Shown here piece by piece: positions 6,149 through 42,248 of a stretch of 64,000 nucleotides of DNA. Within the stretch, counting starts at the first letter, position 1. Every line of letters begins with the position of its first letter. Source of the stretch: an uncultured bacterium. GTDB taxonomy: Bacteria; Joyebacterota; Joyebacteria; Joyebacterales; Joyebacteraceae. The stretch spans positions 124,665-188,664 of the forward strand of contig CAZEXP010000001.1 in assembly GCA_964516845.1 (NCBI GenBank), read 5' to 3'. A program made the position numbers and the translations under genes. The notes under the pieces are model-generated. The model was not told the origin of the DNA. It saw only the letters and a list, made by a program, of their open reading frames with translations, and searched no databases.

Positions 6149-6217
6149 GACCCGTCTTCGGGCCGTAGCGCGGCCTCGGATTCATGTCAATCACGCCACA
6201 GCTGACCGGGATACACT

Positions 6218-22467: not shown

Positions 22468-22470
22468 CGG

Positions 22471-27475: not shown

Positions 27476-28384
27476 ATGCCGGACCCGGCGGTCACTGCGG
27501 TTGTGATCAACTGGAACGGGATACCCGTGATCGAGGCATGTCTCGCGTCGCTTCTCGACTCGACGTATGAGCGGCTCTCGGTTCTGGTGGTCGACAACGC
27601 CTCCGAGGACGATTCGGTCTCCGTCATCCGAGAACGCTACCCGGCCGTCCGCATCGAAAGTACAGGGAGGAATCTCGGCTACGCCGGGGGCGCGAATCAC
27701 GGCCTCAGGGCCGCGCGCGCTTCCGGGGCGGCGTATGTTCTCCTGATGAATAACGACGTGGAGATCGCGCCGGATGCCGTTGGGGAGCTGGTTCGGGCCG
27801 CCGAGGAACACCCGGACGCCATGCTGCTCGGTCCGAAGATCTACTACTTCGACCGGCCGGACGTCATCTGGTCCGCCGGTGGGGTCGTGTCGTTCTGGAC
27901 CGGCAACATCCGGCACCTGGGGATCCGGGAGCAGGACCACGGGCAGTTCGACGAACTCCGCGAGGTCGACTATCTGACGGGGTGCGCCGTGCTGCTCCCG
28001 GCGCGGACGCTCGAGACGGTCGGCGAGCTCGATGAGACGTACTACATGTACAACGAGGACACCGACTGGTCGACCCGCGTCATACGGTCGGGCGGAAAGG
28101 TCCTCTACGTGCCGTCGGCCCGGCTCTGGCACAAGGTGTCGTCGAGTTCGGGAGGGGGCCTGACGAGCTACAAGATCTATCACCGGATACGCAGCACGCT
28201 GGCGTATTTCAGACGATATGCGGCGTGGTACCAGTGGTTCGGCATCCTGCCCGCGACAGCGGCGCGGACGATCACGTTCGCCTTTGCGCAGATAGCGCAC
28301 GGCGAGGGGGGGCGCGTCTCAGCGCTCATTCGCGGGATAGCCGACGGCGCCACGGGGAGGCGGAGGGGCTACACGAATGACTAG
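27476..28384 (+). CDS. Glycosyltransferase family 2 (rhamnosyltransferase-like)
   Basis: VVINWNGIPVIEACLASL...VVDNASEDDS...LLMNNDV...TGCAVLL. Confidence 0.8.
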   Translation: MPDPAVTAVVINWNGIPVIEACLASLLDSTYERLSVLVVDNASEDDSVSVIRERYPAVRIESTGRNLGYAGGANHGLRAARASGAAYVLLMNNDVEIAPDAVGELVRAAEEHPDAMLLGPKIYYFDRPDVIWSAGGVVSFWTGNIRHLGIREQDHGQFDELREVDYLTGCAVLLPARTLETVGELDETYYMYNEDTDWSTRVIRSGGKVLYVPSARLWHKVSSSSGGGLTSYKIYHRIRSTLAYFRRYAAWYQWFGILPATAARTITFAFAQIAHGEGGRVSALIRGIADGATGRRRGYTND

Positions 28385-29783
28385 GCAAACGAGGAAACGT
28401 ATCAGATGGGCACGACCGTGGACACGCGTGCTTTCGGCGCTGCTGCTCGTCGTCGCGATCGCGGGACCGGGACTGCTCTCCGGATGCGCGAGCGACGGTG
28501 GAGGAGACGGACGACCACGAGTCATCATCTTCGGGGTCGACTCCGCGAACTGGAACGTGATGACGCCGATGCTCGAGGCGGGAGAGCTCCCGAATATCGC
28601 GCGACTCGTGCGTCGGGGCTCGTACGGCGTGCTCAAGAGCGGAATACCGATCCAGTCACCCCAGATGTGGACCTCGATCGCCACGGGCGTCGTGCCCGAG
28701 CGGCACGGGATCACCGGGTTCACGGCGGAGATACCAGGGACTGACAACGAGCTTCCGGTGACCAACAACATGCGTCGGGTCAAGGCCTTCTGGAACATTC
28801 TCACCGACGAGGATGTCTCGGTGGGCATTGTGGGGTGGTGGCCCAGCTGGCCGGTCGATGAGGTGAACGGCTTCATGATCGCGCAGCGTGCGTGGCCGAT
28901 GAACTGGTCCGTGCACGGCGTGCCCTTCGGCGCGGCGCGGGACCGGGACGGACGGTTGATCGTCCAGGATTTCCCCGGCCGGACGTATCCCGAAGGCCTC
29001 TACAAGGACTTCGAGCAGTTCGTGATGACCGAGGAGGACGTGACCCTCGATGAACTCAACCGCTTCTTCGCCGACTCGCGTTTCACGGATCACAGGAAGC
29101 AGTTCCACGCGCGGTGGGTCTACGCCAAGGACAGGACCTTCGCGGATGCGGGTCTCCACTACTACACACAGGAGAGACCCGAGGTCTTCGCGGTCTATCT
29201 CCAGGGAACCGACGTGGTCTCACACTACTACTGGGGCTACCAGACGGCGGAGGGCTTCACCGTGTCGCCGGAGGACGAGCGCATGTACGGCGCCGTCGTA
29301 CGCAACTACTACGCGTTCATCGACGACGTCATCGGCGCGTTCCTCGACGTGGCGCCGGAAGAGACCGCCGTACTGGTGATCTCGGACCACGGGTTCGAGA
29401 CGAAGCGTGATCTGAAGGTGCTGTGGGAGCGCGGCGAGGCCATCAGGACCCTTGAGGGCAACAAGGATGTTCCGTGGGACCACGCGATCGACGGCGCCAT
29501 CATCTTCGCAGGACCGGGCATCAAGCGCGGCGTGCCGACGCCCGATATGTCGGTCGTCGACGTCATGCCGACGCTGATGGCCTACCTCGGTCTGCCTGTG
29601 GCGGAGGATCTCGACGGCCGTCCCGCTCTTGCGCTCTTCGAGGACGACTATCTCAGCGCTCACCCGATCCAGTGGGTCGCGTCATACGAGACGGGGGAGG
29701 CGCGCGGCGAGGACGGCCCGATAGCCTCGCCGATGGATGAAGGCATCAAGGAGAAGCTGCGGTCGCTGGGCTACATCGAGTGA
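28377..29783 (+). CDS. Alkaline-phosphatase-superfamily / type I phosphodiesterase-nucleotide pyrophosphatase-like lipoprotein
   Basis: Lipobox LLSGC. VIIFGVDSANWNVM...LPNIARL N-terminus and VISDHGFE metal-site motif. Confidence 0.7.
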   Translation: MTRQTRKRIRWARPWTRVLSALLLVVAIAGPGLLSGCASDGGGDGRPRVIIFGVDSANWNVMTPMLEAGELPNIARLVRRGSYGVLKSGIPIQSPQMWTSIATGVVPERHGITGFTAEIPGTDNELPVTNNMRRVKAFWNILTDEDVSVGIVGWWPSWPVDEVNGFMIAQRAWPMNWSVHGVPFGAARDRDGRLIVQDFPGRTYPEGLYKDFEQFVMTEEDVTLDELNRFFADSRFTDHRKQFHARWVYAKDRTFADAGLHYYTQERPEVFAVYLQGTDVVSHYYWGYQTAEGFTVSPEDERMYGAVVRNYYAFIDDVIGAFLDVAPEETAVLVISDHGFETKRDLKVLWERGEAIRTLEGNKDVPWDHAIDGAIIFAGPGIKRGVPTPDMSVVDVMPTLMAYLGLPVAEDLDGRPALALFEDDYLSAHPIQWVASYETGEARGEDGPIASPMDEGIKEKLRSLGYIE

Positions 29784-29806
29784 TCGTGTTCCAACCCGGG
29801 AGAGAC

Positions 29807-30916
29807 ATGGACACGAGCGTACGATTCGATTGCAGGCACTATGTCGGCGACCGCCCCTGCGTGTGGGGCGGACGCTGCGACGGATGCGCGCATTACAGCG
29901 GCATGGGGACACGGATCCTCGTCATCAAGCTCGCCGCGGCCGGTGACGTCCTGCGCGCAACAGCCGTGTTGCCACCGCTGAAGCGCAAGCATCCGGAGTC
30001 TCACATCACGTGGGTGACGGACTCCGTTGCGATGCCGTTCCTCGAGCACAACCCGTACGTGGACCGCGTCATGCCCTTCGGCTTCGCGTCCCACGTGGAA
30101 CTCGCGGCACAACGTTTCGATGAGGTCATTTGTCTCGACAAGGAACCCCGCGCCGCAGCGTTCGCCGGAGATGTCGCCGCCGACCGCCGCCTCGGCTACG
30201 GACTGACGGAGTGCGGTACTGTCACGCCGATAGACGAAGGGGCGCGGTACGACTTCGATCTGGGTCTCTCGAACGAACGCAAGTTCCGGGAGAACACGCG
30301 GAGCGCCCCGGACATCTACTGCGAGGTGGCGGGTGTCGAGTATGAGGGCGAGCCCTACCTGCTCGCGCTTCCGGACGCGTCGCTCTCCCATGCTCGTGAC
30401 TTTCTCGCCGGGCTAGCGGTCGCGGACCCGCTCGTCGGACTCAATGTCGGCGCCGGCGGTGTGTTCGCCAACAAGGCATGGACGGCCGAGGGATACGCCG
30501 AGCTTGCGCAACGAGTCGTCTCCGAACTCGGCGGCGTCTGTGTGGCGCTGGGCGGTCCCGATGATCGCGAGCGGATGACGCGCGTCGTGGAGTTGTCGGA
30601 CGGGGCGGCGCTCGACGGAGGCATCCACTCTCTTCTGGACTTCGCCGCGATCGTGGCGCACCTGGATGCGCTGGTCACGGGAGACACGATGGCCCTCCAC
30701 ATCGCGGTCGCCGTCGGCGTCCCGGTCGTCGCTCTGTTCGGCCCGACGGTCCCCCAGGAGATCGAGGTCTACGGCAGAGGACGCAAGGTGGTCTCGCCGG
30801 CCGATTGCGCGCCCTGCTACCTGCGCAGCTGTGACCGAAGTCCCAGCTGCATGGAACAGCTTCCCACTGACGCCGTAATGGATTCGCTGCGCGAGGTTCT
30901 GGCGGAGGACGTCTAG
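29807..30916 (+). CDS. ADP-heptose:LPS heptosyltransferase-like glycosyltransferase family 9
   Basis: ILVIKLAAAGDVLRATAVLPPLKRKHP...ITWV GT9 N-terminus and C-terminal GxTGDTMALHIAVAVGVP. Confidence 0.8.
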   Translation: MDTSVRFDCRHYVGDRPCVWGGRCDGCAHYSGMGTRILVIKLAAAGDVLRATAVLPPLKRKHPESHITWVTDSVAMPFLEHNPYVDRVMPFGFASHVELAAQRFDEVICLDKEPRAAAFAGDVAADRRLGYGLTECGTVTPIDEGARYDFDLGLSNERKFRENTRSAPDIYCEVAGVEYEGEPYLLALPDASLSHARDFLAGLAVADPLVGLNVGAGGVFANKAWTAEGYAELAQRVVSELGGVCVALGGPDDRERMTRVVELSDGAALDGGIHSLLDFAAIVAHLDALVTGDTMALHIAVAVGVPVVALFGPTVPQEIEVYGRGRKVVSPADCAPCYLRSCDRSPSCMEQLPTDAVMDSLREVLAEDV

Positions 30917-30941
30917 AGCCGCGCTGAGCAGAGAGAGGGCT

Positions 30942-32729
30942 ATGAACCCGACCGCACGATCAACACAGGCTCCCCGGAAGGCCGCCGCACTCGATGTGGC
31001 CGTGTTCGCCGCGGCGTACGCGCTTCTCGTGGCCGCCGTGCTGGGAGCGCTCGGACTCCGCACGAGCGGTTTCGCATTCACGCTCGCGCTTCCTCAACTG
31101 CTGCCTCTCGTGCTCTCGAGCTTCCTGGCATATCTTCTCGTCGGGTTCGTGGTTCTGGCCCCCTCGCTGCTGAGGCGCACCCGTGGGACGAGCAGGCGGA
31201 CCGGGTTCCGCCTCGCGTTCGCCATGACGACGGTGACGGTCTGGGTATCTCTCACCGTGAGCTTCCTTCCCGTGAAGGGGTCGGAGACATTCGTGCGCGC
31301 TGGAACCCTGACGACGTTCCAGCTCAACATGCTGGGGCTCGCCGCCGTGTTCGCCGCCGGACTCCTGGCAGGATGGATCACATCGTTTCTCCTGCTGAGA
31401 CTGCTGCGCGCCCTCAACGCTTCGCTGACGCCGAACGGCACGCGGATGATCGGATTCGGGCTTGCCGGATTGGCCCTGGTCGCGCTGCTGGTCGGCCCCT
31501 CGGTACGGGCCCGGAGCTTCTCGCATCTGGCGCTGCCCGACGGCGGAACATGGAACGAGCGTCCCAGAGTCGCGGTGGTCGGCGTGGACGGGTGTGATTG
31601 GGAGATGCTCGGTCCGCTTGTCGAGGCGGGGGAACTCCCGAACTTCGCGCGTCTGATGGAGCATGGCTCGTACGGCCCGCTGCTCTCGATGGACCCGATG
31701 ATCTCTCCGAGGATATGGACGACCATTGCGACCGGCGAGACGCCGGAGGAGCACGGCATCATCGGTTTCACCAACGCCGCGGGTGTCCCGGTCAACGCGC
31801 GGATGCGACGCTCCCCGGCGGTATGGGAGATCGTCTCTGCATACGGCGGTGTGTCCGCTGTGAACGGCTGGTACGTGACCTGGCCGACCGACGACGTGCG
31901 CGGCTACATGGTCTCGGACCGCGTTCACAGCCTTCTGCGAGGCGCCACACAGATCTGGCACTCCATCGAGGGCGAACCGACGAACGAACGTCTCGCCCGG
32001 TTCGGGCAATTCACATTCGACAGCGGGTACAAGCGGTTTCAGAGAACGGAGACCGCCTATCAGCAGAACCGCATCGTCGACGAACCGCTCCGCTGGGGAT
32101 ATCTCAGGGATACGATCTACGGTCGCCTTTCCCACGAGCTCCTGCCGCGCTACGAGCCGGATCTCTCGATGGTCTACTTCCGCGGCATCGATTTCGTCCA
32201 GCACTTCTTCTGGCAGTACACGGATCGGGCTGATTTTCCCGGGGTCACGGATGCTGAGGCGCGTGAGTACGGGGAGGTCATCGCGAACTACTACCGGTAT
32301 CAGGACGGGCTTCTCGGGCGTCTGTTGGACGATCTCGGGGATGACGTGAGCGTTCTCCTCGTATCGGACCACGGCTTCACCGCGCGCGTTCTCCTCGACC
32401 CGAACATGCCGGAGCTGACGGGCATGCACGATCGCCGCGGAGTCATCATCGCATCGGGTCCGGCCTTCGCCGACGCGGGCTACGTGGAGGGAGCGACGAT
32501 TCTCGATGTGGCTCCGACGACGCTGGCCGTGCTCGGCCTTCCGATAACCCGGACGATGGATGGTCGGGTCCTGACGGAGCTCCTCGCTCCGGAAGATCTT
32601 GAACGCTACCCCGTGCAGCTTGTCGAGAGCTACGGCACGGCTCTGGGCCGCTCGGTCGAGACCGGGACGGGTTCCAGCATGGATGAGTCCATCAAGGAAC
32701 AGCTCAGGTCGCTCGGCTACATCCAGTGA
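30942..32729 (+). CDS. Alkaline-phosphatase-superfamily / phosphodiesterase-like protein with N-terminal ~5-TM domain (paralog of 28377..29783)
   Basis: Hydrophobic N-terminal ~200 aa. Then VAVVGVDGCDWEML...LPNFARL, VSDHGF, and the same C-terminal tail (IKEQLRSLGYIQ vs IKEKLRSLGYIE). Confidence 0.7.
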   Translation: MNPTARSTQAPRKAAALDVAVFAAAYALLVAAVLGALGLRTSGFAFTLALPQLLPLVLSSFLAYLLVGFVVLAPSLLRRTRGTSRRTGFRLAFAMTTVTVWVSLTVSFLPVKGSETFVRAGTLTTFQLNMLGLAAVFAAGLLAGWITSFLLLRLLRALNASLTPNGTRMIGFGLAGLALVALLVGPSVRARSFSHLALPDGGTWNERPRVAVVGVDGCDWEMLGPLVEAGELPNFARLMEHGSYGPLLSMDPMISPRIWTTIATGETPEEHGIIGFTNAAGVPVNARMRRSPAVWEIVSAYGGVSAVNGWYVTWPTDDVRGYMVSDRVHSLLRGATQIWHSIEGEPTNERLARFGQFTFDSGYKRFQRTETAYQQNRIVDEPLRWGYLRDTIYGRLSHELLPRYEPDLSMVYFRGIDFVQHFFWQYTDRADFPGVTDAEAREYGEVIANYYRYQDGLLGRLLDDLGDDVSVLLVSDHGFTARVLLDPNMPELTGMHDRRGVIIASGPAFADAGYVEGATILDVAPTTLAVLGLPITRTMDGRVLTELLAPEDLERYPVQLVESYGTALGRSVETGTGSSMDESIKEQLRSLGYIQ

Positions 32730-32799: not shown

Positions 32800-34047
32800 A
32801 TGCATGTCCGGGTCGGCAACGTCTTTGCGGTCATCGTTGTCGGCGCGCTCCTCCAGGTGCTCACGCAAACGGTCCTCGCTCGCGGACTCACGAAAGAGGA
32901 TGTGGGTCTCATCTCCCTGATTCTGGGAGCCCTGCCGCTCTTCTCCACGCTGACGCTTCTTGGGCAGGACACGTCCATCGTGAGATACCTCTCTCGAGAT
33001 GGTCGAGCGGAGTACGATCTGACGGGGCACGCGAGGCGTGTTCTGATGATCGTCGTTCCGCTTGGGGCAGCGCTGGGACTGGTCGGCGGCCTCTTCTATG
33101 CTCTCCCACGGCTTCCCCTCGCCACCATCATCACCCTCGTCGCGACGCAGAACGTGGTGCTGGTGCTGACCGCATTTCTGCGAGCCAGACACCGCTATGA
33201 AGCTGCCATCATGCTGCGGCATCTTCCGGTCATCGGAAGCGCCGCTGCTCTCGCGGTGCTCTTCGCCACCGGAACCCTCAGCCTGACCACCGCGCTCGTG
33301 GCGCTTCTCGCCGCGTACGCAGTTTCGGCCGTCGTGACGGTCGCACTCCCGTGGAACCGCTCGCCGGAGAGCGCGCTGTCCACTCCCGCGGCCCGCGTTC
33401 CCACGCGGGTGATCAGAGAAGGCCTGCTGTTTCTGGGATTGGGCGTCTCGCTGTCCGTAATGGTGAGCATCGACAGACTCGTCATCAGCCGACTGATGAC
33501 CCTCTCAGACCTTGCGGTCTACTCAACGATCTTCGCGACCACGAAGGGATTCGACTTCCTGTTCTACGCTGTCGGCTATGTGCTCATGCCCGCGATCGGT
33601 CGCGGCGGCAACATGAGCCTGCGGAAACCCGCGCTGGTGGTCGGGGGAGTCACGGCGCTTGCGGTCGTCGGATACCTCCTGCTGGGCGACGAACTCGTGC
33701 ATCTGCTCTTCTCAGGGCGCTACGACGAGGGCACGTACCTGATCCCCGCTTTCGTGTTGTCCGGCGCGTTGAAGCTGTTCTACTCTATCCCGTCAAGCTA
33801 TATCAGCGGGGGCGCCCCGACACGGGCCGTCCGCCAGTTCATGGTGACCAATCTCCTGACCATGGCACTGAACGTCGTACTCGACATCGTGTTCGTGCTC
33901 AGGATGGGACTCATCGGGGCGGCTCTGGCGACTGCGATCGCCTGGGCGCTGCGCCTGATCGCGGGCCTGATCATCATGCAAATGCACAAGGGACGGGCAC
34001 GGCCCCGGCACGTGACGCCTATGCCCGACGAACTGACCGAGCCCTGA
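32800..34047 (+). CDS. Wzx/MOP-superfamily polysaccharide flippase-like membrane protein
   Basis: About 12 predicted TM helices with polysaccharide-biosynthesis-protein architecture. ATG 32800. Confidence 0.7.
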   Translation: MHVRVGNVFAVIVVGALLQVLTQTVLARGLTKEDVGLISLILGALPLFSTLTLLGQDTSIVRYLSRDGRAEYDLTGHARRVLMIVVPLGAALGLVGGLFYALPRLPLATIITLVATQNVVLVLTAFLRARHRYEAAIMLRHLPVIGSAAALAVLFATGTLSLTTALVALLAAYAVSAVVTVALPWNRSPESALSTPAARVPTRVIREGLLFLGLGVSLSVMVSIDRLVISRLMTLSDLAVYSTIFATTKGFDFLFYAVGYVLMPAIGRGGNMSLRKPALVVGGVTALAVVGYLLLGDELVHLLFSGRYDEGTYLIPAFVLSGALKLFYSIPSSYISGGAPTRAVRQFMVTNLLTMALNVVLDIVFVLRMGLIGAALATAIAWALRLIAGLIIMQMHKGRARPRHVTPMPDELTEP

Positions 34048-34084
34048 CGGGGCTCGCGCAAACCCAACGACGAGAGAGGAACCC

Positions 34085-36499
34085 ATGGTGACGCCCCGAG
34101 TCCGCGCGTCGAAGAGGTCCGCGACCGGACCGCGAACAAACGAGTCCCAGCGCCTTGAGCAGGAGCCGATCCTGGGACGTCATGGAACGGCTTTCTGCGT
34201 GACCGTGATCGTTGTTGTGGCGCTCATCTTCTTCTACCGGGTTCTCTTTCTCGGCGAGATCCTGGCCGGGGGAGACGTTCTCGCCGCCGCGGCGATCTTC
34301 GATGACTACGCCCGGGAACGGATCGCTGGTGGATCGCTCCCCTTGTGGAACCCGTACATCTTCTCGGGAATGCCGTTCTTCGAGAGCATGACGTGGAACG
34401 GCGTGGTCTACCCGAGCTACTGGATCAGACACTTCATCGAGGCCATCCCCGGAGTCGAGCTTCCGCGCCTCACGTTCATCGTCCTGCACTACATGCTCGC
34501 CGGGATCGGCACGTTCGCCTATCTCAGGTCGAGGCGTGTGGGACACATCGGCGCGCTCGCGGGGGGACTGGCGTTCATGCTGTCGCCGCACCTCATCGGA
34601 CTGGCGGGCATCGGTCACGGCGGGAAGGTGCTCACCGGCGCCTACATCCCGCTGGTCCTCATGGCGGCCCATCGGGTCCTGGACACGGGGCAGCGACGCT
34701 GGCTGGGCCTGCTCGGACTCTTCGGAGGGCTGCAGTTCCTGGCGCGCCACGTTCAGGTGAGCTACTACACCTGGCTCGCTGTGGGCATCCTCATCGTCTG
34801 CTTCGCGGTGTCGGCGGCGAGAGAGAAGCGCGGCTGGGGCTTCATCGGAGGCAGAGCCGCCATGGTCATCGGCGGCGGCGTCCTCGCGGCCGCGGTCGCC
34901 GGGATCCTGCTCATTCCGCTCCAGAGCTACTCGCTGCTCTCGACGAGAGTCGCTGAATCGGGTGGCATGGGCTTCGAACAGGCCACGATGTGGTCGTTCC
35001 ATCCGAAGGAGCTTCTGACGTTCCTCGTCCCGTCGGCGTTCGGGATGGCCAACGAGACATACTGGGGACCGATGCCCTTCAACCAGGTCTCGCACTACGC
35101 GGGGTTCGTGGCTCTCGCTCTGGCGGTGGTCGCTCTCGGGACCAGACGGACGCGAACCGTTCGCTATCTCGGGATTCTCGCCGCGGTCTGTCTGGTGCTG
35201 AGCTTCGGGAAGTACGTCACGCCGCTCTACCGCGTCCTCTACACGGTGCTCCCCGGATTCAGTCGCTTCCGCGTGCCGGCGCTGTTCCTCCTGTTCGCCC
35301 AGTTCGCCATCGCCGCGCTTGCCGGACACGGCGTCTCCGCCATTCTTGGCGAGACCCGCGCGAGGATCGGGAACTGGAAGATATGGGCGGCGGCGGTGGC
35401 GGGCGTCGGGATACTGGTCGGCATCATCGTTGCAGCTTCCCGGGCCGGCGTCGAACAGAGCGCGACCGCGGCTCTGCTGTCGAAGCACGCGGGCGTGGCC
35501 CCCTCGGTGCTGAGACCGATCGCCGCGCAGGCCGCCCGCATCGCCGTCCGTGACACGGGGATCCTCATTACCTTCGCCGCAGCCACGGGGGTGGCGATCT
35601 TCGTGGCGTCGACAAGAAGGCTCGCCGGCTGGATCGGAGCACTGCTCCTCGTCGGTGTTCTCGTCTGGGACATCTGGCTCGTGGACGCGCGCTTCATGAA
35701 TCCGGAGCGAATGAGGCCGCTCGACAGCTACTACCCGCAGACGACGGCGGTACGATACCTCAAGCAGCAGGAGGGGTACTTCCGCATCGCGCCCCTGGGA
35801 GCCGATTTCGGCTCGAATGCGTGGATGTACCACCGGATCCAATCGATGGGCGGATACCATCCCGCGAAGCTCGGCTCGTACAACATGCTTCTCGACATCA
35901 TCGGCATCGCCGATCTGCGCTTGCTGGCAATCGCGAACGTCCGGTACGTTGTAGGACCCGAGCAGGAGCTCGGCCACCCCGCGTTCCGTATGGTCGCGCC
36001 CGGTGTCCACGAGTTCCTCGGGGTTCTCCCGCGGACGTTCCTGATCGGTGAGGCCCGGGAGGTCATGCCCGACGGCCGCGTGCTCGGGGAGATGCGAACG
36101 GACGGGTTCAATCCGGGCGCATACGCCATTGTCCAGGGCGAACTCCCGGGGCCGGTCCAATCGGCCGAGGGAGGAACGGCGGAGATCGTCTCCTACGAAG
36201 CCGAGAGGATCGTGATCGAGGCGAACGCCCCGCGACCTTGTCTTCTCTATCTCTCGGAGGTATACTATCCGAACGGCTGGAAGGCCTACGTAGATGGTGA
36301 GGAGACCGCCATTTACCGCACCAACTTCGCGTTCCGGTCAGTCTATCTCGCGTCCGGCGAGCATACGGTGGAGTTCGTCTATGAGCCGCCCTCGGTACGC
36401 GCCGGGCTCATCGTCACGCTGATGGGTCTCGCCGCCGTCACTCTGTTGATCATCCTCCCGAGGCGCAAGGGGAGAGAGCCGCAAGGAGCCGCTGCATGA
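34085..36499 (+). CDS. YfhO-family membrane glycosyltransferase (GT-C like)
   Basis: PLWNPYIFSGMPFF and LHYMLAGIGTFAYL are hallmark YfhO motifs. Large polytopic protein with a C-terminal periplasmic domain. Confidence 0.8.
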   Translation: MVTPRVRASKRSATGPRTNESQRLEQEPILGRHGTAFCVTVIVVVALIFFYRVLFLGEILAGGDVLAAAAIFDDYARERIAGGSLPLWNPYIFSGMPFFESMTWNGVVYPSYWIRHFIEAIPGVELPRLTFIVLHYMLAGIGTFAYLRSRRVGHIGALAGGLAFMLSPHLIGLAGIGHGGKVLTGAYIPLVLMAAHRVLDTGQRRWLGLLGLFGGLQFLARHVQVSYYTWLAVGILIVCFAVSAAREKRGWGFIGGRAAMVIGGGVLAAAVAGILLIPLQSYSLLSTRVAESGGMGFEQATMWSFHPKELLTFLVPSAFGMANETYWGPMPFNQVSHYAGFVALALAVVALGTRRTRTVRYLGILAAVCLVLSFGKYVTPLYRVLYTVLPGFSRFRVPALFLLFAQFAIAALAGHGVSAILGETRARIGNWKIWAAAVAGVGILVGIIVAASRAGVEQSATAALLSKHAGVAPSVLRPIAAQAARIAVRDTGILITFAAATGVAIFVASTRRLAGWIGALLLVGVLVWDIWLVDARFMNPERMRPLDSYYPQTTAVRYLKQQEGYFRIAPLGADFGSNAWMYHRIQSMGGYHPAKLGSYNMLLDIIGIADLRLLAIANVRYVVGPEQELGHPAFRMVAPGVHEFLGVLPRTFLIGEAREVMPDGRVLGEMRTDGFNPGAYAIVQGELPGPVQSAEGGTAEIVSYEAERIVIEANAPRPCLLYLSEVYYPNGWKAYVDGEETAIYRTNFAFRSVYLASGEHTVEFVYEPPSVRAGLIVTLMGLAAVTLLIILPRRKGREPQGAAA

Positions 36500-37209
36500 A
36501 GGTGATGGTCGTCGTCCCGACCTACAACGAGCGTGAGAACATCTCGAATCTGGTTCCCAGACTCCTTGGTCACGGTGAGCACATCAACCTGCTCGTCGTC
36601 GACGACGGATCGCCCGATGGCACCGGCCGGTATGCCGACGAGCTCGCGGCCGCGAATCCGCGCGTCCGGGTTCTTCACAGGCCGTCGAAGATGGGGCTTG
36701 GGTCCGCCTACGTCGCGGGCTTCAAGCTCGCGCTGACCACGGACGTGGACCGCATCGTCCAGATGGACGCCGATTTCTCGCATGACCCCGAGGTCATCCC
36801 GGACCTGCTCCACGAATCGGAGAGATACGATGTCGTTCTCGGGTCCCGCTACATCACCGGCGCGAACGTCGTCAACTGGCCGCTGCAGCGACTCTTCCTG
36901 AGCTATTTCGCCAACGTATACACACATCTGATCACGGGCCTGCCGCTCAGGGACTCCACGGGCGGGTTCAAATGCTTCCGGCGCGAGGTGCTCGAGGCGA
37001 TCGACCTCGATACGATCCGCTCCGACGGCTACTCGTTCCAGATCGAGGTCAACTTCAGGTGCTGGAGGCGAGGCTTCTCGATCCACGAGATCCCGATCGT
37101 GTTCGTCGACCGCCACTCCGGCACATCCAAGATGTCCCGCCGAATCGTCTGGGAGGCGACGTGGCTGGTGTGGCGACTGAGGCTCGAGCGCATCCTGCGA
37201 AGAAGATAG
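36496..37209 (+). CDS. Polyprenol/dolichol-phosphate mannosyltransferase-like GT2 (DPM1/Ppm1-like, soluble type)
   Basis: VVVPTYNERENI...VVDDGSPDGT...DADFSHDP...GFKCFRREVL. ATGA overlap with yfhO. Confidence 0.85.
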   Translation: MKVMVVVPTYNERENISNLVPRLLGHGEHINLLVVDDGSPDGTGRYADELAAANPRVRVLHRPSKMGLGSAYVAGFKLALTTDVDRIVQMDADFSHDPEVIPDLLHESERYDVVLGSRYITGANVVNWPLQRLFLSYFANVYTHLITGLPLRDSTGGFKCFRREVLEAIDLDTIRSDGYSFQIEVNFRCWRRGFSIHEIPIVFVDRHSGTSKMSRRIVWEATWLVWRLRLERILRRR

Positions 37210-39365
37210 CGGGGGACGGAGCGGAGCTCGATCTCTCGATCATCATCGTCGGGTACAACAGCGCCGAGCCGCTGGCGGCGTGCCTGCGATCGCTCGCGGA
37301 GTGCCGGGACATCGTGTCTCGAGAAGTCCTCGTCGTCGACAACGCATCGGCCGACGACACAGGAGAGATGGTCCGGCGCGACTTTCCCTGGGCTGAGTAC
37401 CACGAGAATGCGGCGAACGTCGGCCTGTCGCGCGCGGTCAACCGCGGCATCAGGGCATCGCGCGGACGGCACATCCTCGTTCTGAACCCGGACATCGAGG
37501 CGCGGCCCGGCTCGCTCGACGCACTGGTGGGATTCATGGATGCCACGCCCGGGGCGGGACTCGCGGGTGCGAAACTGATCAACACGGACGGCTCGCTTCA
37601 ACTCTCGTGCAGGGCGTTCTACACGTTCTGGACGCTGCTGCTGCGGAGGACGTTCCTCGGGAAGCTGTTCCGGAGGAGCGGGGCGATCCGACGACATCTG
37701 ATGCTCGACTACGACCACGAGTCCCCGCGTGAGGTGGACTGGGTTCTCGGAGCCTGCATGCTCGTTCGGCGGGCGGCCATGGCCGACGTCGGGGCGATGG
37801 ACGAGCGGTTCTTCCTGTACTTCGAGGACGTGGACTGGTGCTACCGGATGTGGCGCGGAGGTTGGAAGGTCTGGTACGTGCCGGACGCCGTGATGGACCA
37901 TCGCCACGCGCGCGCCAGCGCTCGGCCGGGCTTGAACAAGCTGCTGATCGCGCACCTCATCTCGCTCCTGCACTTCTATGAGAAGTGGGGAGGGGTCATC
38001 TACCGGATGAAGAAACACCGACGCATCCTCTTGACGGCGTTAAGCCTTCTGGCCGACCTCGTGGCTGTCAACGCCGGGTTCATTCTCGCCTATGCGCTGC
38101 GTTCGAGTCTGCGCGGCCTGCTTACGAAACCGCTCTTCGGTCTCGGGGTCTACGACACCTTTCTTATCTTCGCGAACATCGTGTTCATCCTCGTGTTCGC
38201 ATTCTTCGGTCTCTACGGCGGTCGGCGCGACCGCGAGACGGGCGCGGATGTCGCCTTCCGCGTGACACGGGCCGCCGTCGTGGCGGGCGTCGTGCTGATG
38301 GCGAGTACGTTCCTGACCTCCACAACGGTCTACTCGCGGCTTCTCGTCGGGGCTTTCTGCGTGATCGTCGTCCTGCTCGACATGGCCCTTCGGGGGGTTA
38401 TCCGGTGGGTACAGAACCAGGCCCGCGCGGGCAGGTTTGACCTCACGCGCGTGGCTGTCGTCGGCACCGGCCCCACGGCAACGCTCCTCGCCGAGCGTAT
38501 CGCCGCCGCCCCCGAGCTCGGGTACGATCTGGCGGGTCTGGTCTCCGAGCGTCCACGGGACCCGGGAGCGGGTGACCGGCTGGCGATCCCTGTCATCGGA
38601 AGTCTCGATGAACTGCCGGACCTCATCGAGCGACAGAGGATCGAGGAAATCATCTTCGCGGAGCCGGAGCTGTCGAGCACCGAGATCGCCGATTTCCTCA
38701 TTCGCGCCCGCCGGAGCACGGTCGACGTGAAGATGGTCTCCGACCTCACGAATCTGCTGACGCAACGCGCGCGCGTCGAGGAGTTCCTCGATGTTCCGAT
38801 CGTCGCCTTCGAGCGCGAGGCGCTCCTCGGAGCGCAAGCGGGTGTCAAGCGGGTCGCCGACCTGGTCGGAGCAGCGGCCCTGCTCGTGGTGTCGAGTCCC
38901 GTGCTCGCCGTGGCGGCGCTTGTCGCCGGAGCGGGCTCGCGGCGGAGTCTGTTCTCACGCGGACAGCGTGTCGGACTTGCGGAGCGGTCATTCGCCAAGT
39001 GGGGACTTCGGGAACAGGAGCCTCCCGGCGCGCTCCGTCGCTACGTCGAGCGGCACGGCCTCTCCCGGATGCCCGAACTCCTCAACGTCATCACGGGTGA
39101 GATGAGTCTCGTCGGCCCTGCACCCCTGACGGCGTCGGAGGCAACCGGGTGTACTGCGCGCGAGCGCGTGCGCTTCGACGCACGCCCCGGCGTCACCGGA
39201 CTGGCTCAGGTCGCATCAGCGGCCCACGCGGTGGGTGACGGCGGGATGGCGCTTGACGCCTACTACGTACAGAACTGGTCGCTGGGCGGAGATGTGCGGA
39301 TCATCATGCGGTGGTGGCTTCTGTGTCTGGGTGGCCGCTGCGCTCGGCGACACGAGGATGTGTGA
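37161..39365 (+). CDS. Fusion protein: N-terminal GT2 glycosyltransferase + C-terminal polyprenyl glycosylphosphotransferase (WbaP/PglC-type bacterial sugar transferase)
   Basis: GTG 37161 after RBS gggagg. GT2 block (IIIVGYNSAEPL...VVDNASADDT...LNPDIE). Then 4-5 TM helices (MKKHRRILLTALSLLADL...). C-terminal Bac_transf motif (PELLNVITGEMSLVGPAPL). One uninterrupted reading frame. Confidence 0.75.
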   Translation: MAGVATEARAHPAKKIAGDGAELDLSIIIVGYNSAEPLAACLRSLAECRDIVSREVLVVDNASADDTGEMVRRDFPWAEYHENAANVGLSRAVNRGIRASRGRHILVLNPDIEARPGSLDALVGFMDATPGAGLAGAKLINTDGSLQLSCRAFYTFWTLLLRRTFLGKLFRRSGAIRRHLMLDYDHESPREVDWVLGACMLVRRAAMADVGAMDERFFLYFEDVDWCYRMWRGGWKVWYVPDAVMDHRHARASARPGLNKLLIAHLISLLHFYEKWGGVIYRMKKHRRILLTALSLLADLVAVNAGFILAYALRSSLRGLLTKPLFGLGVYDTFLIFANIVFILVFAFFGLYGGRRDRETGADVAFRVTRAAVVAGVVLMASTFLTSTTVYSRLLVGAFCVIVVLLDMALRGVIRWVQNQARAGRFDLTRVAVVGTGPTATLLAERIAAAPELGYDLAGLVSERPRDPGAGDRLAIPVIGSLDELPDLIERQRIEEIIFAEPELSSTEIADFLIRARRSTVDVKMVSDLTNLLTQRARVEEFLDVPIVAFEREALLGAQAGVKRVADLVGAAALLVVSSPVLAVAALVAGAGSRRSLFSRGQRVGLAERSFAKWGLREQEPPGALRRYVERHGLSRMPELLNVITGEMSLVGPAPLTASEATGCTARERVRFDARPGVTGLAQVASAAHAVGDGGMALDAYYVQNWSLGGDVRIIMRWWLLCLGGRCARRHEDV

Positions 39366-39385
39366 GCCTGACAGGAGGTACTGAT

Positions 39386-40729
39386 ATGCACCGAGGGACT
39401 ATCGCGCTCATCGCCATCATCTTGTGTCTCGCGGGCTCCGCGTCCTCCGCGGACTGGACGTCTGTGAGCTTCCCTAACAATGCCAAGATCTGGGATATGG
39501 GGATAGACGGGAGCGTTCTCTGGTTCTCCACGCAGGGACAGGGGCTGGTCGGGTACGATGACGGGAGCTGGGTGACGCACACGCACAGCGACGGAGGGAT
39601 ACGGAGCGACAGCTGGAACTACGGGCTGCTCGTGAGCTCTTCCGGCGACAAATGGGTAACCCGCGACGGGAGCGAGACGGTCGACCGTGTCAGTGACAAC
39701 GGAACCTTCTCGTACAAGGACGACGACGTCTGGACCTACTACAGCTACCCGGAGCAGCTGGCGAACAGGCGCGTCTTCTCGTCCGCCGAGGACTCCGAGG
39801 GACGAGCGTGGTTCGGCATGCGAGATGAGAATCTGAGCCGGACCGGTATCCTCGAGCTGTTCATCGACAATTCGGACACGACCTCGGCCGACGATGAGTG
39901 GTTCCACTACGACAACGTGTGGACGCCCGACTCGACGAGCTTCGGCGGCGACGACGTTCGCACGCTCATGGTCGACGATCAGGACCGGCTCTGGATCGGA
40001 TACTACGGTTCGGGGATCGACCTCTGGGAGTACGGGAACCCGCGCGTCTTCGCGGACGACAGCTGGACGCACTTCGCCGAGGAGGACGGTCTGCCCGAGG
40101 ACGACATCCACACGTTCTGGCAGGGAAGCGACGGAACGATCTGGGCCGGGACGCTTGGCGGACTGGCAGCATATGATGAGCAGAGCGGCACCTGGACGGT
40201 CGTGTCCGGCCTTCCGGGGAGCCAGGCGCGCGCCGTCTCGGAGGACGCCCAGGGCCACATCTGGGTCGGAACGAACGACGGCGTCGCGATGCTCTACGCG
40301 AACCGGGCGGTCGCCTTCACCTACACGACCGAGGACGGTCTCGCGGACGAGCAGGTTGACCACATCGCTATCGACGTGTCCTCGGGCAACGTCTGGGCCG
40401 TCACGAAGGACAACGTGGCGGATGAAACGACGTTGAACGTGTTCCACTCGGGGATCGTCGAGGGAACGGGAAAGCTGTTCGTCTATCCGAACCCCTGGCG
40501 TGAGGGAGTTTCCGAGAATCAGATACAGCTCTACGGCGCGCCCGAGGGATCGCTCGTCGAGGTCTTCGATGTGACCGGTCAGAAGATGGTCGAACTCCCG
40601 CCGTCGGAACCGTACATCTGGGATTCGCTGGACGAGTCACTCAACGAGGTTCCGAGTGGTGTCTATCTGATCCGCGTCGAAGTACCGGGAGGCGAGGCGC
40701 AGATCGTCAAGCTGGCCATCATCAGATAG
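39386..40729 (+). CDS. Secreted beta-propeller (Reg_prop-like repeats) protein with T9SS-type C-terminal sorting domain
   Basis: RBS aggagg. Signal peptide. Repeated G-x-LW/IW-x-GT-x-GL-x-YD units. C-terminus LFVYPNPW...GVYLIRVEV...IVKLAIIR resembles the Por secretion-tail domain. Confidence 0.7.
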   Translation: MHRGTIALIAIILCLAGSASSADWTSVSFPNNAKIWDMGIDGSVLWFSTQGQGLVGYDDGSWVTHTHSDGGIRSDSWNYGLLVSSSGDKWVTRDGSETVDRVSDNGTFSYKDDDVWTYYSYPEQLANRRVFSSAEDSEGRAWFGMRDENLSRTGILELFIDNSDTTSADDEWFHYDNVWTPDSTSFGGDDVRTLMVDDQDRLWIGYYGSGIDLWEYGNPRVFADDSWTHFAEEDGLPEDDIHTFWQGSDGTIWAGTLGGLAAYDEQSGTWTVVSGLPGSQARAVSEDAQGHIWVGTNDGVAMLYANRAVAFTYTTEDGLADEQVDHIAIDVSSGNVWAVTKDNVADETTLNVFHSGIVEGTGKLFVYPNPWREGVSENQIQLYGAPEGSLVEVFDVTGQKMVELPPSEPYIWDSLDESLNEVPSGVYLIRVEVPGGEAQIVKLAIIR

Positions 40730-40784: not shown

Positions 40785-42248
40785 ATGAGCAACGAGGCTG
40801 GGAAGACACGAACACTGATCGTTGGCGCGGGCTCGGCCGGTGGAATGGTCGCGGAGGAGATGCGCCTCAGGCCCGAGCAGGGCTACGCTGCGGTCGGGTT
40901 CCTGGATGACGATACCGCGAAGATCGGGACGCAGGTCGCAGGACTTCCCGTACTCGGCAAGACCTCCGACCTCGTCCGGATCGTCAGGGACTCCGGGATC
41001 GATCAGGTCGTCATAGCGATCCCGTCCGCATCGGGATCCTCCATTCGGAGCGTGGTGGAGCTGTGTGAGGAAGCCGGAACGCCGGCGAAGATCGTTCCGG
41101 GGGTCTGGGAGATCATCCTCGGCGACGTCACGATCAGCCAGCTTCGGCAGGTGGTTCCCGAGGACCTGCTCGGGCGCGAGACGGTGGTGCTCGACTGCGA
41201 GGAGATGACCGGGTACCTGAGCGGTCGCACCGTCCTTATCACGGGAGCGGGGGGATCGATCGGATCGGAACTCGCGCGGCAGGTCGCCTCGTTCGGTCCC
41301 GCCAAGCTGATCATGATGGGTCGTGGTGAGAACAGCATCTACGAGATCGACCAGGAGATCGGCCAGGACTACCCGGACGTCGATCGTCACCTCGTCATCA
41401 GCAGCATCTCCGACCCGATGGCGGTCGAGGTGCTCTTCCGGGACGAGCATCCGGAGATCGTTCTCCACGCCGCGGCGCACAAGCATGTCCATCTGATGGA
41501 GGCCTTCCCGGACGAGGCCGTGAAGAACAACGTGATGGGAACGCGGATCCTCATCGACGCCGCCGTCCGCTACGGCGCCGACCGCGTCGTCATGCTGTCC
41601 ACGGACAAGGCCGTGCGACCCAGAGGCGTCATGGGCGCTTCGAAGCGTGTCGCGGAGTCGATCATGATCGAACGGGCCTCGCGGGGGAGCGCGACCAAGC
41701 TCATCGCCGTCCGGTTCGGCAACGTCCTGGGCAGCCGCGGGAGCGTCGTCCCGCTCTTCCGTCAGCAGATCAGTCACGGAGGTCCGGTGACCGTGACTCA
41801 CCCGGACGTCACACGGTACTTCATGACGATCCGCGAGGCCGCGATGCTCGTTCTCGAGGCGGGTCTCACGGGCCGGGGTGGGGAAATCTTCGTGCTCGAT
41901 ATGGGCGAACCCATGCGCATCGCGGACCTCGCCACGCACCTGATACGGCTCTCCGGGCTCGAGCCCGGCAGGGATATTGCTATTGAGTTCACGGGCCTGC
42001 GGCCGGGGGAGAAGCTCCATGAGGAGCTGTGGTACTCGGACGAGACCCTCCTTGAGACAGGCAGAAAGAAGGTGATGGTCGTCCAGTCTCCGAAGGACGC
42101 CGTCGTCCCGGACCTCTGGGACCGCGTCAGGCGGCTCGAGGAGTTCGCAGAGCACTGCGACCGGGTCGGCGTCATCCGGGAGCTTGCCGACATCTTCCCC
42201 GACATGAAGGTAAGGACGGGCCATGACGACGAAGACGCCGGCCGCTGA
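40785..42248 (+). CDS. UDP-sugar 4,6-dehydratase (CapD/PglF/WbpM family)
   Basis: Two Rossmann regions. VLITGAGGSIGSELARQ and downstream SDR catalytic motifs. Confidence 0.85.
   Translation: MSNEAGKTRTLIVGAGSAGGMVAEEMRLRPEQGYAAVGFLDDDTAKIGTQVAGLPVLGKTSDLVRIVRDSGIDQVVIAIPSASGSSIRSVVELCEEAGTPAKIVPGVWEIILGDVTISQLRQVVPEDLLGRETVVLDCEEMTGYLSGRTVLITGAGGSIGSELARQVASFGPAKLIMMGRGENSIYEIDQEIGQDYPDVDRHLVISSISDPMAVEVLFRDEHPEIVLHAAAHKHVHLMEAFPDEAVKNNVMGTRILIDAAVRYGADRVVMLSTDKAVRPRGVMGASKRVAESIMIERASRGSATKLIAVRFGNVLGSRGSVVPLFRQQISHGGPVTVTHPDVTRYFMTIREAAMLVLEAGLTGRGGEIFVLDMGEPMRIADLATHLIRLSGLEPGRDIAIEFTGLRPGEKLHEELWYSDETLLETGRKKVMVVQSPKDAVVPDLWDRVRRLEEFAEHCDRVGVIRELADIFPDMKVRTGHDDEDAGR

Follow-up and report, generated by a model that had tools for sequence, protein, structure and literature searches.

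The question raised by this locus is whether one bacterial polypeptide both starts a lipid-linked glycan and adds its second sugar. Within the window, which is the whole stretch of DNA analysed (64,000 nucleotides), the initial annotation had described one uninterrupted frame encoding a GT2 glycosyltransferase fused to a WbaP/PglC-type polyprenyl phosphoglycosyltransferase (PGT), and had called the C-terminal domain catalytic. That word is its sole descriptive error, because the residues that define the active site of monoPGTs are absent. With a probability of roughly 0.6, the membrane protein would be a working GT2 on a non-catalytic large-PGT (Lg-PGT) scaffold that acts together with a YfhO-like and a Dpm1-like protein, and the glycan would be initiated by another enzyme.

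The fusion gene is the third of a block of three genes.

34085-36499, forward strand: YfhO-like GT-C membrane glycosyltransferase, first gene of the triad (Pfam PF09586, 52.7 bits; conserved position)
36496-37209, forward strand: Dpm1-type polyprenyl-phosphate glycosyltransferase catalytic domain, 237 residues, without TM helices (Pfam; PDB 5MLZ)
37151-37156, forward strand: Shine-Dalgarno-like motif GGGAGG, 4 nt before GTG 37161 and inside the upstream gene (sequence)
37161-37209, forward strand: overlap of 49 nt between the Dpm1-like gene and the fusion gene (gene coordinates)
37161-39365, forward strand: whole fusion gene, 734 residues with GT2, four-TM-helix, DUF and PGT-like parts (ORF, Pfam)

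The open frame begins at 36972 and ends with the TGA at 39363-39365, and GTG 37161 is the first plausible start of the gene, the sole alternative being GTG 37170. Because the Dpm1-like gene ends at 37209, the overlap, earlier put at about 49 nt after an internal GGGAGG, is exactly 49 nt. The same start site and overlap are present in the gene-caller models of relatives (loci L004, L005 and L006), and the overlap suggests translational coupling. The stop of the YfhO-like gene overlaps the start of the Dpm1-like gene as well. The preceding gene had correctly been called dpm1-like: its product matches PDB 5MLZ with an E-value of 3e-35, although in the catalytic part only (residues 23-246 of 374). 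The peptide quoted in the initial annotation, PELLNVITGEMSLVGPAPL, is part of the translated 734-residue frame.

The protein itself is built from the following parts.

37233-37916, forward strand: GT2 (GT-A) domain, residues 25-252 (Pfam PF00535 and PF13641; invariant motifs; Foldseek)
38019-38429, forward strand: bundle of four transmembrane helices, residues 287-423 (AF2 helices; hydropathy; dN/dS 0.054)
38445-38738, forward strand: Rossmann-like DUF of large PGTs (CoA_binding_3), residues 429-526 (Pfam PF13727; AF2 beta-alpha pattern)
38763-38825, forward strand: beta-hairpin and linker, residues 535-555 (matches the hairpin of the domain-swapped WbaP dimer)
38826-39332, forward strand: PGT-like (Bac_transf) domain, residues 556-724 (Pfam, 91.7 bits; pLDDT 85-97; fold of WbaP 8T53)
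38895-38900, forward strand: retained Ser579-Pro580 helix-break of the re-entrant membrane helix, S23-P24 of PglC (Pro in 65/65 clade A members)

Pfam places GT2 at residues 25-252, CoA_binding_3 at 348-526 and Bac_transf at 563-717. Hydropathy and AF2 agree on four TM helices (287-316, 328-348, 361-385 and 393-423), which begin right after Met283 of the internal MKKHRR, where the multi-TM segment had been expected, followed by a Rossmann domain at 429-525. The proposed order of GT-A, multi-TM, Rossmann-like and Bac_transf domains is therefore borne out by Pfam, hydropathy and AF2. A four-helix bundle and a PF13727 DUF (dN/dS 0.053) ahead of the PGT core are the layout of the Lg-PGTs, and the best PDB match of the predicted fold is WbaP 8T53, with a TM score of 0.72 over 454 columns in Foldseek. 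In the AF2 model the re-entrant helix is a long helix from 556 to 592, hydropathy gives a hydrophobic segment at 564-593, and pLDDT across the PGT-like domain is 85-97. The hairpin has low pLDDT in the AF2 monomer, which was likewise reported for the dimer hairpin of WbaP (PMC10942596).

Residue conservation was read from the column statistics of MAFFT alignments in PglC numbering, with alignment to the WbaP and PglC structures. Clade A comprises 65 Candidatus Eisenbacteria fusions, clade B the Krumholzibacteriota-type fusions, and group C 11 canonical fusions. In the full alignment of clade A, 13 positions of the hairpin are conserved to at least 97%. The GT2 half has the HMM matches (64.9 bits for PF00535 and 63.3 bits for PF13641, both above threshold), the DXD-type motif, the catalytic-base region and the fold of the GT2/GT-A family. 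Its catalytic motifs D60, D65, N109-P-D111, E222-D223-V-D225 and R229 are invariant in 115/115 homologues, Foldseek finds the GT-A enzymes WrtF, GalNAc-T2 and 6P61 with probability 1.0, and dN/dS is 0.093. With its glycosyltransferase motifs intact, the N-terminal domain is predicted to be a working enzyme, and it is plausible that it acts early, on a lipid-linked acceptor.

The picture is different at the other end of the protein. In monoPGTs, D93 and E94 form the catalytic dyad, of which the Asp forms the covalent phosphoglycosyl-enzyme intermediate (PMC10186338, PMC12802240). K59, R88 and the Arg of the PRP motif orient substrates or bind the nucleotide, and R88 and R145 bind undecaprenyl phosphate (Und-P) (PMC12802240, PMC10186338, PMC10519829).

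39063-39068, forward strand: Ser635-Arg636 (codons TCC CGG) where monoPGTs carry the catalytic Asp-Glu dyad (WbaP/PglC alignments, column statistics)
39120-39122, forward strand: Ala654 (codon GCA) in place of the PRP Arg (alignments, column statistics)

The nucleotide-binding motif thus reads PAP, K59, R88 and R145 are replaced by G615, E630 and A687, and a deletion of about 27 residues has removed part of the catalytic core between the KFR(S/T)M region and the position of the dyad. Altogether 32 of the 54 canonical invariant positions are lost. The active-site positions are not conserved across the 65 members of clade A, the nucleophile column being occupied by Ser in 33, Asp in 13, Ala in 10, Thr in three and His in three sequences besides other residues, whereas all six are invariant in 11/11 group C fusions. 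Bac_transf (PF02397) matches residues 563-717 with 91.7 bits, which is above the cut-off of 27 but a low score within this family, and the scores for TIGR03025 (224.8), TIGR03023 (196.6) and TIGR03022 (141.2) are below the cut-offs of 295.55, 410.75 and 403, each model matching as two separated stretches. No clade-specific conserved acidic residue that could indicate a relocated active site was found among the conserved positions of the domain; the only clade-specific gains are Arg, His and Gly (R626, H632, G633 and R675). Because the catalytic residues are all gone, the fused PGT domain is probably not the initiating enzyme, contrary to the initial annotation, which had placed this function on the fusion. 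Six arginines near the former active site (R603, R626, R627, R631, R671 and R675) are conserved, and given these some ligand binding may persist there.

In the favoured scheme, the C-terminal two-thirds would be a complete WbaP-type module that has lost its phosphoglycosyltransferase chemistry and has been kept as a scaffold. By analogy to WbaP, this scaffold would anchor the GT2 domain on the cytoplasmic side of the membrane, near polyprenyl-linked intermediates, and it is probably a hairpin-swapped dimer. The fusion would cooperate with the YfhO-like GT-C and the TM-less Dpm1-like polyprenyl-phosphate sugar synthase, and initiation of the lipid-linked glycan would be left to some other enzyme. 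Several observations do not fit easily. An Asp is kept at the nucleophile position in 13/65 clade A members, the conserved arginines lie close to the old active site, and the sequence leaves room for PGT activity by an unrecognised mechanism. In addition, the cluster encodes bacillosamine-type UDP-sugar enzymes (PglF, PglE and acyltransferase) and a Wzx-type flippase, which normally call for a cognate PGT, and with none nearby the fused domain could still initiate.

The search for another PGT covered the window and related loci. A six-frame hmmsearch of the 64-kb window with a canonical PGT HMM returned the fusion alone, Pfam scans of about 55 window ORFs gave no further Bac_transf and no Glycos_transf_4, and no separate PGT was found within 10 kb on either side of the clade A and B loci. 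A gap at 43.4-44.4 kb, which has the right size for a PglC, holds a FemAB/GNAT-like gene. Beside a half-degenerate group D fusion there is a stand-alone small Bac_transf protein that was considered as supplier of the activity, but it reads L-VE-TLQ and has no Asp. Pfam scans of the window ORFs, of which the very small ones were covered in part, gave no match to the GtrA flippase family. The order YfhO-like, Dpm1-like, fusion was found in 9/9 loci of clade A and 48/49 of clade B, thus in 57/58 degenerate but in 0/5 canonical or intermediate loci. According to the tree this association is essentially one evolutionary event and not 58 independent ones, which limits its weight for the scaffold.

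These data also bear on another possibility, namely that the TM-less Dpm1-like enzyme has replaced the PGT as initiator by making a monophosphate-linked Pren-P-sugar. The dead PGT module would then dock the Dpm1-like enzyme, hold the Pren-P-linked acceptor for the GT2 domain, or both, and the YfhO-like GT-C would use the flipped product. Coupling of the Dpm1-like and YfhO-like genes to the degenerate fusions, the translational link of the fusion to a Dpm1-like protein that, unlike its nearest homologue of solved structure, has no membrane domain, the lack of a PGT of either superfamily in the window or in the flanks of related loci, and the lack of a GtrA-type flippase among the scanned ORFs all speak for it. 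However, R88 and R145, the arginines that bind Und-P, have been lost as well, the evidence is gene context that goes back to a single phylogenetic event, and an unlinked WecA- or PglC-type gene could lie elsewhere in the genome. Such a switch of initiation is rather unlikely, although it is the best of the alternatives. Some archaeal N-glycosylation routes build the glycan on polyprenyl monophosphate. In evolutionary terms, a bifunctional GT2-LgPGT in the common ancestor of the Eisenbacteria and Krumholzibacteriota-type clades would have lost its PGT function when the Dpm1-like enzyme took over initiation on polyprenyl monophosphate, its dead module being repurposed for docking that enzyme, for holding the acceptor, or for both, and the YfhO-like GT-C completing the pathway outside the membrane; this history is similarly unlikely.

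It is very improbable that the protein is a bifunctional enzyme, whose C-terminal domain moves a sugar-1-phosphate to undecaprenyl phosphate and whose GT2 domain adds the second sugar. The architecture fits the known BiPGT class (PMC11626204), group C relatives of the same architecture have an intact active site, and the cluster offers PglF/PglE-type enzymes and a Wzx-type flippase but no other PGT. Against this, other residues stand in place of the nucleophile Asp and its Glu partner, in a column that is hypervariable in clade A, K59, R88, the PRP Arg and R145 have gone along with the deleted core residues, and the clade-specific positions provide no alternative conserved acidic residue.

If the PGT chemistry is gone, the domain might also be a functionless remnant that decays neutrally, with only the GT2 domain and the TM anchor being important. 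Constraint is indeed weaker on this domain than on the remainder of the protein (identities within clade A of 0.52 versus 0.64, compared with 0.75 versus 0.72 in the canonical clade), and the GxMSxVGP and RPGxTG motifs fade in the Krumholzibacteriota-type relatives. However, its dN/dS of 0.107 (about 0.11-0.19) is that of a domain under purifying selection, against 0.093 for GT2, and 31 of 165 positions are at least 95% conserved in clade A. K563, R564, D567, P580, GxMSxVGP, RPG, YY and D711 are conserved. The residues corresponding to D11, P24 and D168 of PglC, which belong to the re-entrant helix, are kept, the Pro and the Asp in 65/65 members each. The domain has preserved its length, with no truncations, in about 70 species-level genomes of two phyla, and the AF2 model predicts with confidence that its fold is retained. 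Neutral decay is therefore very improbable. That an error of sequencing or assembly ahead of the MKKHRR methionine falsely fused two genes, a GT2 and a WbaP-like one, can practically be dismissed: the GGGGAGGGG stretch 12-20 nt 5' of ATG 38007 could resemble an internal ribosome-binding site, but this G-rich stretch is coding sequence for the invariant K275-W276-G-G motif, the uninterrupted ORF with neither frameshift nor stop between the domains gives an identical 734-residue protein in three independent run assemblies (SRR8943083, SRR8943090 and SRR8943091), Met283 is Met in only 23/65 clade A members and Leu, Val or Ala in 42/65, so that there is no conserved internal start, and the fusion looked for in relatives is continuous in more than 100 homologue clusters of several phyla, nearly all of the best 120 having the same domain architecture.

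Returning to the non-catalytic scaffold, its significance lies in the way PGTs are usually treated, as the committed and pathway-defining step, and in annotation pipelines that name any Bac_transf match "sugar transferase". A widely distributed clade of such matches is predicted from its residues to be unable to perform the PGT reaction and is nevertheless under purifying selection. As no recognisable initiating enzyme is near these clusters, predictions assuming that the fusion initiates are likely wrong. A description of a non-catalytic PGT was not found in the searchable literature, in a search that did not reach the primary SSN survey of the family. What the non-catalytic Lg-PGT modules do is a question that the field has yet to answer (PMC10942596), and the fusion family is a natural experiment on the role of the four-helix bundle, the DUF and the hairpin dimer. 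The strict coupling of the fusion to a YfhO-like GT-C and a soluble Dpm1-like synthase is in addition a lead that could connect two branches of envelope glycosylation, Pren-PP (PGT) and Pren-P (Dpm1/GT-C), in phyla of the FCB group about which little is known.

Compared with known systems, the C-terminal 450 residues have the architecture and the predicted fold of the Lg-PGT WbaP of Salmonella enterica (8T53). Both share the four-helix bundle, the PF13727 DUF, the inter-domain beta-hairpin, the re-entrant helix with its Ser-Pro break and the Bac_transf core, and the helix-stabilising D11, P24 and D168 (PglC numbering) are likewise conserved. Unlike WbaP, the fusion has neither the Asp-Glu dyad nor K59, R88, the PRP Arg and R145, misses about 27 core residues, scores below the NCBIfam cut-offs and bears the additional N-terminal GT2. 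Three-component extracytoplasmic glycosylation combines a GtrB/CsbB-type Pren-P-sugar synthase, a GtrA/GtcA flippase and a GT-C such as YfhO (PMC7389260, PMC11127046). The locus resembles it in the adjacent Dpm1/GtrB-family and YfhO-family GT-C genes, which form a conserved set with the gene of a third membrane protein, but the synthase has no TM helices, a GtrA-family flippase was not detected among the ORFs scanned, and the third component is a GT2-pseudoPGT fusion instead of a small 4-TM flippase. Soluble Dpm1 catalytic subunits need a membrane partner, as human DPM1 does with DPM3 and the catalytic domain of mycobacterial Ppm1 with its membrane domain. Here, too, judged from the genes, an anchorless Dpm1-type domain is encoded beside a polytopic membrane protein and translationally coupled to it, although the putative partner, a degenerate PGT module, has no relation to either DPM3 or Lnt-like domains. 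A further parallel are the BiPGTs, in which a PGT core is fused to a glycosyltransferase or an acetyltransferase (O'Toole et al. 2021, as cited in PMC11626204 and PMC10942596). Like these, the fusion has a glycosyltransferase and a monoPGT-family domain on one polypeptide, and the group C relatives (e.g. P0074) resemble genuine BiPGTs on an Lg-PGT chassis. Unlike these, its PGT half appears non-catalytic by every sequence criterion; because this core lacks the catalytic residues, the protein would not be bifunctional in the BiPGT sense, though its GT2 domain is intact. On the favoured reading it is a variant of the BiPGT class, and GT-PGT fusions as a class have already been described (PMC11626204).

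The fusion gene is a single uninterrupted reading frame on the forward strand (37161-39365), and this frame contains no stop from 36972 until the TGA at 39363-39365. The GTG at 37161 is the first usable start, with a GGGAGG (37151-37156) four bases upstream, and the sole other candidate before the first conserved β-strand is the GTG at 37170. The upstream Dpm1-like gene has its stop at 37209 and the two genes therefore overlap by 49 nt. Gene callers have chosen the identical start and the identical overlap on related contigs. The overlap of about 49 nt after GGGAGG reported in the initial annotation holds. In the 734-aa product Pfam places GT2 (PF00535/PF13641) at residues 25-252, CoA_binding_3 at 348-526 and Bac_transf at 563-717. 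The following layout comes from hydropathy together with an AlphaFold2 model (mean pLDDT 83.6, pTM 0.76):

residues 287-316, 328-348, 361-385 and 393-423: four TM helices, beginning just after M283-KKHRR (hydropathy and AlphaFold2)
residues 429-525: Rossmann-like domain (hydropathy and AlphaFold2)
residues 535-555: hairpin, low-confidence in the AlphaFold2 model
residues 556-592: long hydrophobic helix (hydropathy and AlphaFold2)
residues 598-724: compact C-terminal domain (AlphaFold2 pLDDT 85-97)

The top solved-structure match of the model is the complete large phosphoglycosyl transferase (PGT) WbaP (8T53; E 2.3e-16, TM 0.72, 454 columns), followed by GT-A enzymes that match the N-terminal domain. 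Because Pfam, the hydropathy/AlphaFold2 layout and the WbaP match agree, the description given before, a GT2 domain, a multi-TM segment from MKKHRR, a Rossmann-like region and a C-terminal Bac_transf domain, is correct. For comparison, 115 full-length fusion proteins were aligned with MAFFT and fall into four groups: the clade of the window protein (A, 65), a Krumholzibacteriota-type clade (B, 36), canonical proteins (C, 11), and half-degenerate proteins (D, 3). The GT2 motifs D60, D65, N86/G88/N94, N109-P-D111, G197, R203, E222-D223-V-D225-W-C and R229 are invariant in 115/115 sequences of all four groups, and the GT2 half is intact at the sequence level.

The PGT-like half is different. Its Bac_transf score is low (91.7 bits, Pfam), and the fusion stays below the cut-offs of the NCBIfam models for the large, WbaP-type monoPGTs (Lg-PGTs), with the match split into two separated pieces. 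In a residue-level alignment to the WbaP and PglC structures the fusion reads rhgL-SR-MPELLNVITGEMSLVGP-A-P where the enzymes read L-DE-LPQLFNVLKGxMSxVGP-R-P, and from the KFR(S/T)M region to the dyad the fusion is shorter by about 27-30 residues.

PglC active-site positions and the corresponding residues of the window protein (PglC literature numbering mapped via the PDB chain, offset 4)
K59: G615
R88: E630
D93: S635
E94: R636
PRP Arg: A654
R145: A687

D93-E94 is the catalytic dyad of PglC, while K59, R88 and the PRP arginine orient the substrate or bind the nucleotide (PMC12802240; PMC10186338), and undecaprenyl phosphate is bound by R88 and R145 (PMC10519829). MonoPGT catalysis proceeds via a covalent enzyme intermediate, according to Das et al. 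2017 as cited in PMC10186338. All six positions are invariant in the fully canonical group C and unconserved in group A, whose nucleophile column reads S33/D13/A10/T3/H3/N/F/V and whose PRP arginine column reads A18/E17/R10/Q9 and others. In group B the deletion is larger, with VN in place of the dyad and with PYP, and group D has the Asp of the dyad but not the Glu. Judged from this alignment, the active-site loss is a property of the clade and not a private mutation of the window protein. There are 54 positions at which group C is invariant and agrees with PglC; of these, group A has kept 22 and lost 32. Among the conserved positions of the group A PGT domain there is no new acidic residue as a stand-in nucleophile. 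The group-A-specific conserved gains are R626, H632, G633, and R675, and a basic cluster (R603, R626, R627, R631, R671, R675) is kept near the former active site. Of the earlier interpretation the fusion itself is real, but the role of initiating phosphotransferase on this polypeptide is unsupported, since the PGT half does not have the active-site residues.

When a neighbour-joining tree is calculated with the PGT part of the fusion proteins left out, A and B are sister clades apart from C, and D is nested within C. The most parsimonious history is a single inactivation in the common ancestor of A and B, after which the ex-catalytic positions drifted, with the partial degeneration in D being independent. 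The group-D fusion P0115 is directly followed by a stand-alone small Bac_transf gene (locus L009, 12205-12879). The dyad reads D-L in the fusion and V-E in the small protein (Asp lost, Glu kept), which also has GNRP in place of GPRP. This is an odd pairing of adjacent, complementary half-degenerate PGT domains.

A single strand encodes the long glycan cluster, which occupies roughly 19-48 kb of the window. It starts with several GT2 and GT4 genes and a GT9, two AlkP-family phosphodiesterase-like genes, a Wzx-type flippase, and a YfhO-like GT-C. These are followed by the 237-aa Dpm1-like GT2, the fusion, and a Reg_prop/T9SS-tail protein, and finally by a PglF-like dehydratase, a PglE-like aminotransferase, a FemAB/GNAT-like acyltransferase, a GT87-like GT-C, a GT4, and a GT2. 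Further features in and around the cluster are:

6206-7645, forward strand: selenocysteine synthase gene SelA, among housekeeping genes (S6, L9, SMC, FtsY-like, riboflavin)
19982-24377, forward strand: radical SAM/SPASM enzyme, DUF362 protein, Pfam-less ORF, and LPG_synthase_TM (MprF-flippase-like) membrane protein
28341-32729, forward strand: two type-I phosphodiesterase/AlkP-family genes flanking the GT9 (heptosyltransferase-family)
34019-36160, reverse strand: 713-aa antisense ORF opposite the YfhO-like gene
39311-40729, forward strand: Reg_prop β-propeller protein with T9SS sorting domain (Por_Secre_tail), between the fusion and the PglF-like gene
40785-42248, forward strand: PglF/CapD-like 4,6-dehydratase with CoA_binding_3 DUF at residues 11-100 and no TM helices
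47936-53423, forward strand: bacterial microcompartment locus (PTAC phosphotransacylase, aldehyde dehydrogenase, Nuo51/RnfC-like, BMC shell proteins)

The Reg_prop protein has the same position in 5/6 clade-A relatives' loci, and a Reg_prop gene is there too in the only clade-B locus annotated (L007). The protein is possibly a secreted glycosylation target or a cluster-specific partner. The dehydratase carries the same DUF that forms the WbaP dimer interface, the N-terminal domains of Lg-PGT and PglF being homologous (PMC10942596), and a docking of the dehydratase on the fusion's DUF is conceivable. The AlkP-family/GT9/AlkP-family arrangement is kept in three relatives' loci (L004-L006), and the pair may add phospho-substituents to the glycan. 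In the same three loci the microcompartment genes also start directly after the glycan cluster. It is unusual for a polysaccharide locus to contain radical SAM/SPASM, DUF362, and LPG_synthase_TM genes. The composition of the antisense ORF is that of a typical spurious long ORF in 65% GC DNA, and ORF length alone is no evidence in this window. The SelA gene implies that this organism uses selenoproteins.

Of the fetched loci whose flanks are long enough, 9/9 in clade A and 48/49 in clade B have the order YfhO-like, Dpm1-like, fusion, with a FemAB-like gene downstream in 46/49. Neither neighbour is present in four group-C loci and the group-D locus, where the fusion stands alone or behind a GT1 gene, in one case with a Wzy_C gene nearby. 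As A and B are one clade, this coupling represents one evolutionary association and not dozens of independent ones. No second Bac_transf domain is present in any frame of the 64-kb window, no Glycos_transf_4 (WecA/MraY) gene among its scanned ORFs, and no canonical monoPGT within 10 kb on either side of the fusion in the fetched clade A/B loci. We favour, with a probability of roughly 60%, that the GT2 is the working enzyme and the remainder a membrane anchor and organising scaffold. The GT2 domain would do the chemistry, and the 4-TMH/DUF/pseudo-PGT module would anchor it at the cytoplasmic membrane face, probably as a dimer through the hairpin as in WbaP. The scaffold would position the GT2 beside lipid-linked intermediates and operon partners, and an enzyme other than the fusion would initiate the glycan. 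In a rival reading, the initiator would be the Dpm1-like enzyme itself, which matches P. furiosus DPMS over its catalytic part (residues 23-246 of 374; E 3e-35) but does not have the membrane domain of DPMS. Having replaced the PGT, it would start a Pren-P-linked glycan, and the dead module would serve to dock this enzyme or to hold the acceptor. Such a replacement, suggested by the gene context, would explain why PGT chemistry was lost as well as the strict coupling to Dpm1/YfhO, but it seems rather unlikely, and the known Und-P-binding arginines are themselves lost from the module. It is considerably harder to imagine that the fusion keeps a cryptic PGT activity given the hypervariable nucleophile column.

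What has been kept in the group A domain is structural, namely K563/R564/D567, P580 (65/65), GxMSxVGP, R-P-G (65/65), Y-Y, and D711. The equivalents of D11, P24, and D168 of PglC, which shape and stabilise the re-entrant helix (PMC12802240), are among the kept positions. Compared to the closest relative, the dN/dS (Nei-Gojobori) is 0.107 for the PGT-like domain, and 0.093, 0.054, and 0.053 for GT2, TM bundle, and DUF, respectively. More distant pairs give 0.18-0.35, but dS is saturating there. The constraint is relaxed, with a within-clade identity of 0.52 versus 0.64 for the rest of the protein (0.75 versus 0.72 in the canonical clade), and 31/165 positions are at least 95% conserved in the clade. 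In about 70 species-level loci the stretch following the GT2 EDxDW motif is still 500-530 residues long, also where GxMSxVGP and RPGxTG have faded. The hairpin (535-555), whose WbaP counterpart is the domain-swapped dimer interface (PMC10942596), is among the best-conserved stretches of the clade with 13 positions at 97% or more. The dead domain is thus under purifying selection, with its predicted fold retained. That the tail is just a functionless remnant is similarly improbable in view of the low dN/dS and the kept domain length. Many of the Krumholzibacteriota-type loci (L021-L089) have neither GxMSxVGP nor RPGxTG and do not match a canonical PGT HMM, and these loci are a graded decay series of the enzyme signature inside a retained domain.

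There is virtually no chance that the fusion is an artefact. Two genes joined by error are excluded because Met283 is not conserved (Met in 23/65 close relatives, Leu, Val or Ala in the others), the G-rich stretch 5' of it codes for the invariant K275-W276-G-G motif, fused homologues exist, and independent assemblies of three runs (SRR8943083, SRR8943090, SRR8943091) gave precisely this 734-aa protein, a result that together with the open frame confirms the single ORF. A database search with E ≤ 1e-10 as the limit gave 952 matches, and the four-domain architecture is shared by almost all of the top 120 clusters (identity 38-88%). The one-genome-per-species scan found 80 fusion loci, those labelled Candidatus Eisenbacteria at 57-88% identity and those labelled Krumholzibacteriota, 'Fibrobacteraceae' or Gemmatimonadales MAGs at 33-43%. 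The same fusion is accordingly present in related genomes.

GT-PGT fusions are already recognised as a class, the BiPGTs (PMC11626204; PMC10942596), and the fusion as such is therefore not new. No description of a conserved, catalytically dead PGT domain was found in the searchable literature, the primary SSN paper excepted, which is not proof of absence. While the fusion alone is routine, a pseudo-PGT kept across two phyla is a specialist test case, and its tie to the Dpm1/YfhO pair, in clusters where no initiator is visible, should be of interest to glycoconjugate specialists. The canonical relatives of group C are ordinary-looking BiPGTs on an Lg-PGT chassis. By sequence and structure the window fusion is a member of the monoPGT/Lg-PGT fold family, but it is missing the defining catalytic features and should thus be classified neither as a PGT nor as a functional BiPGT.
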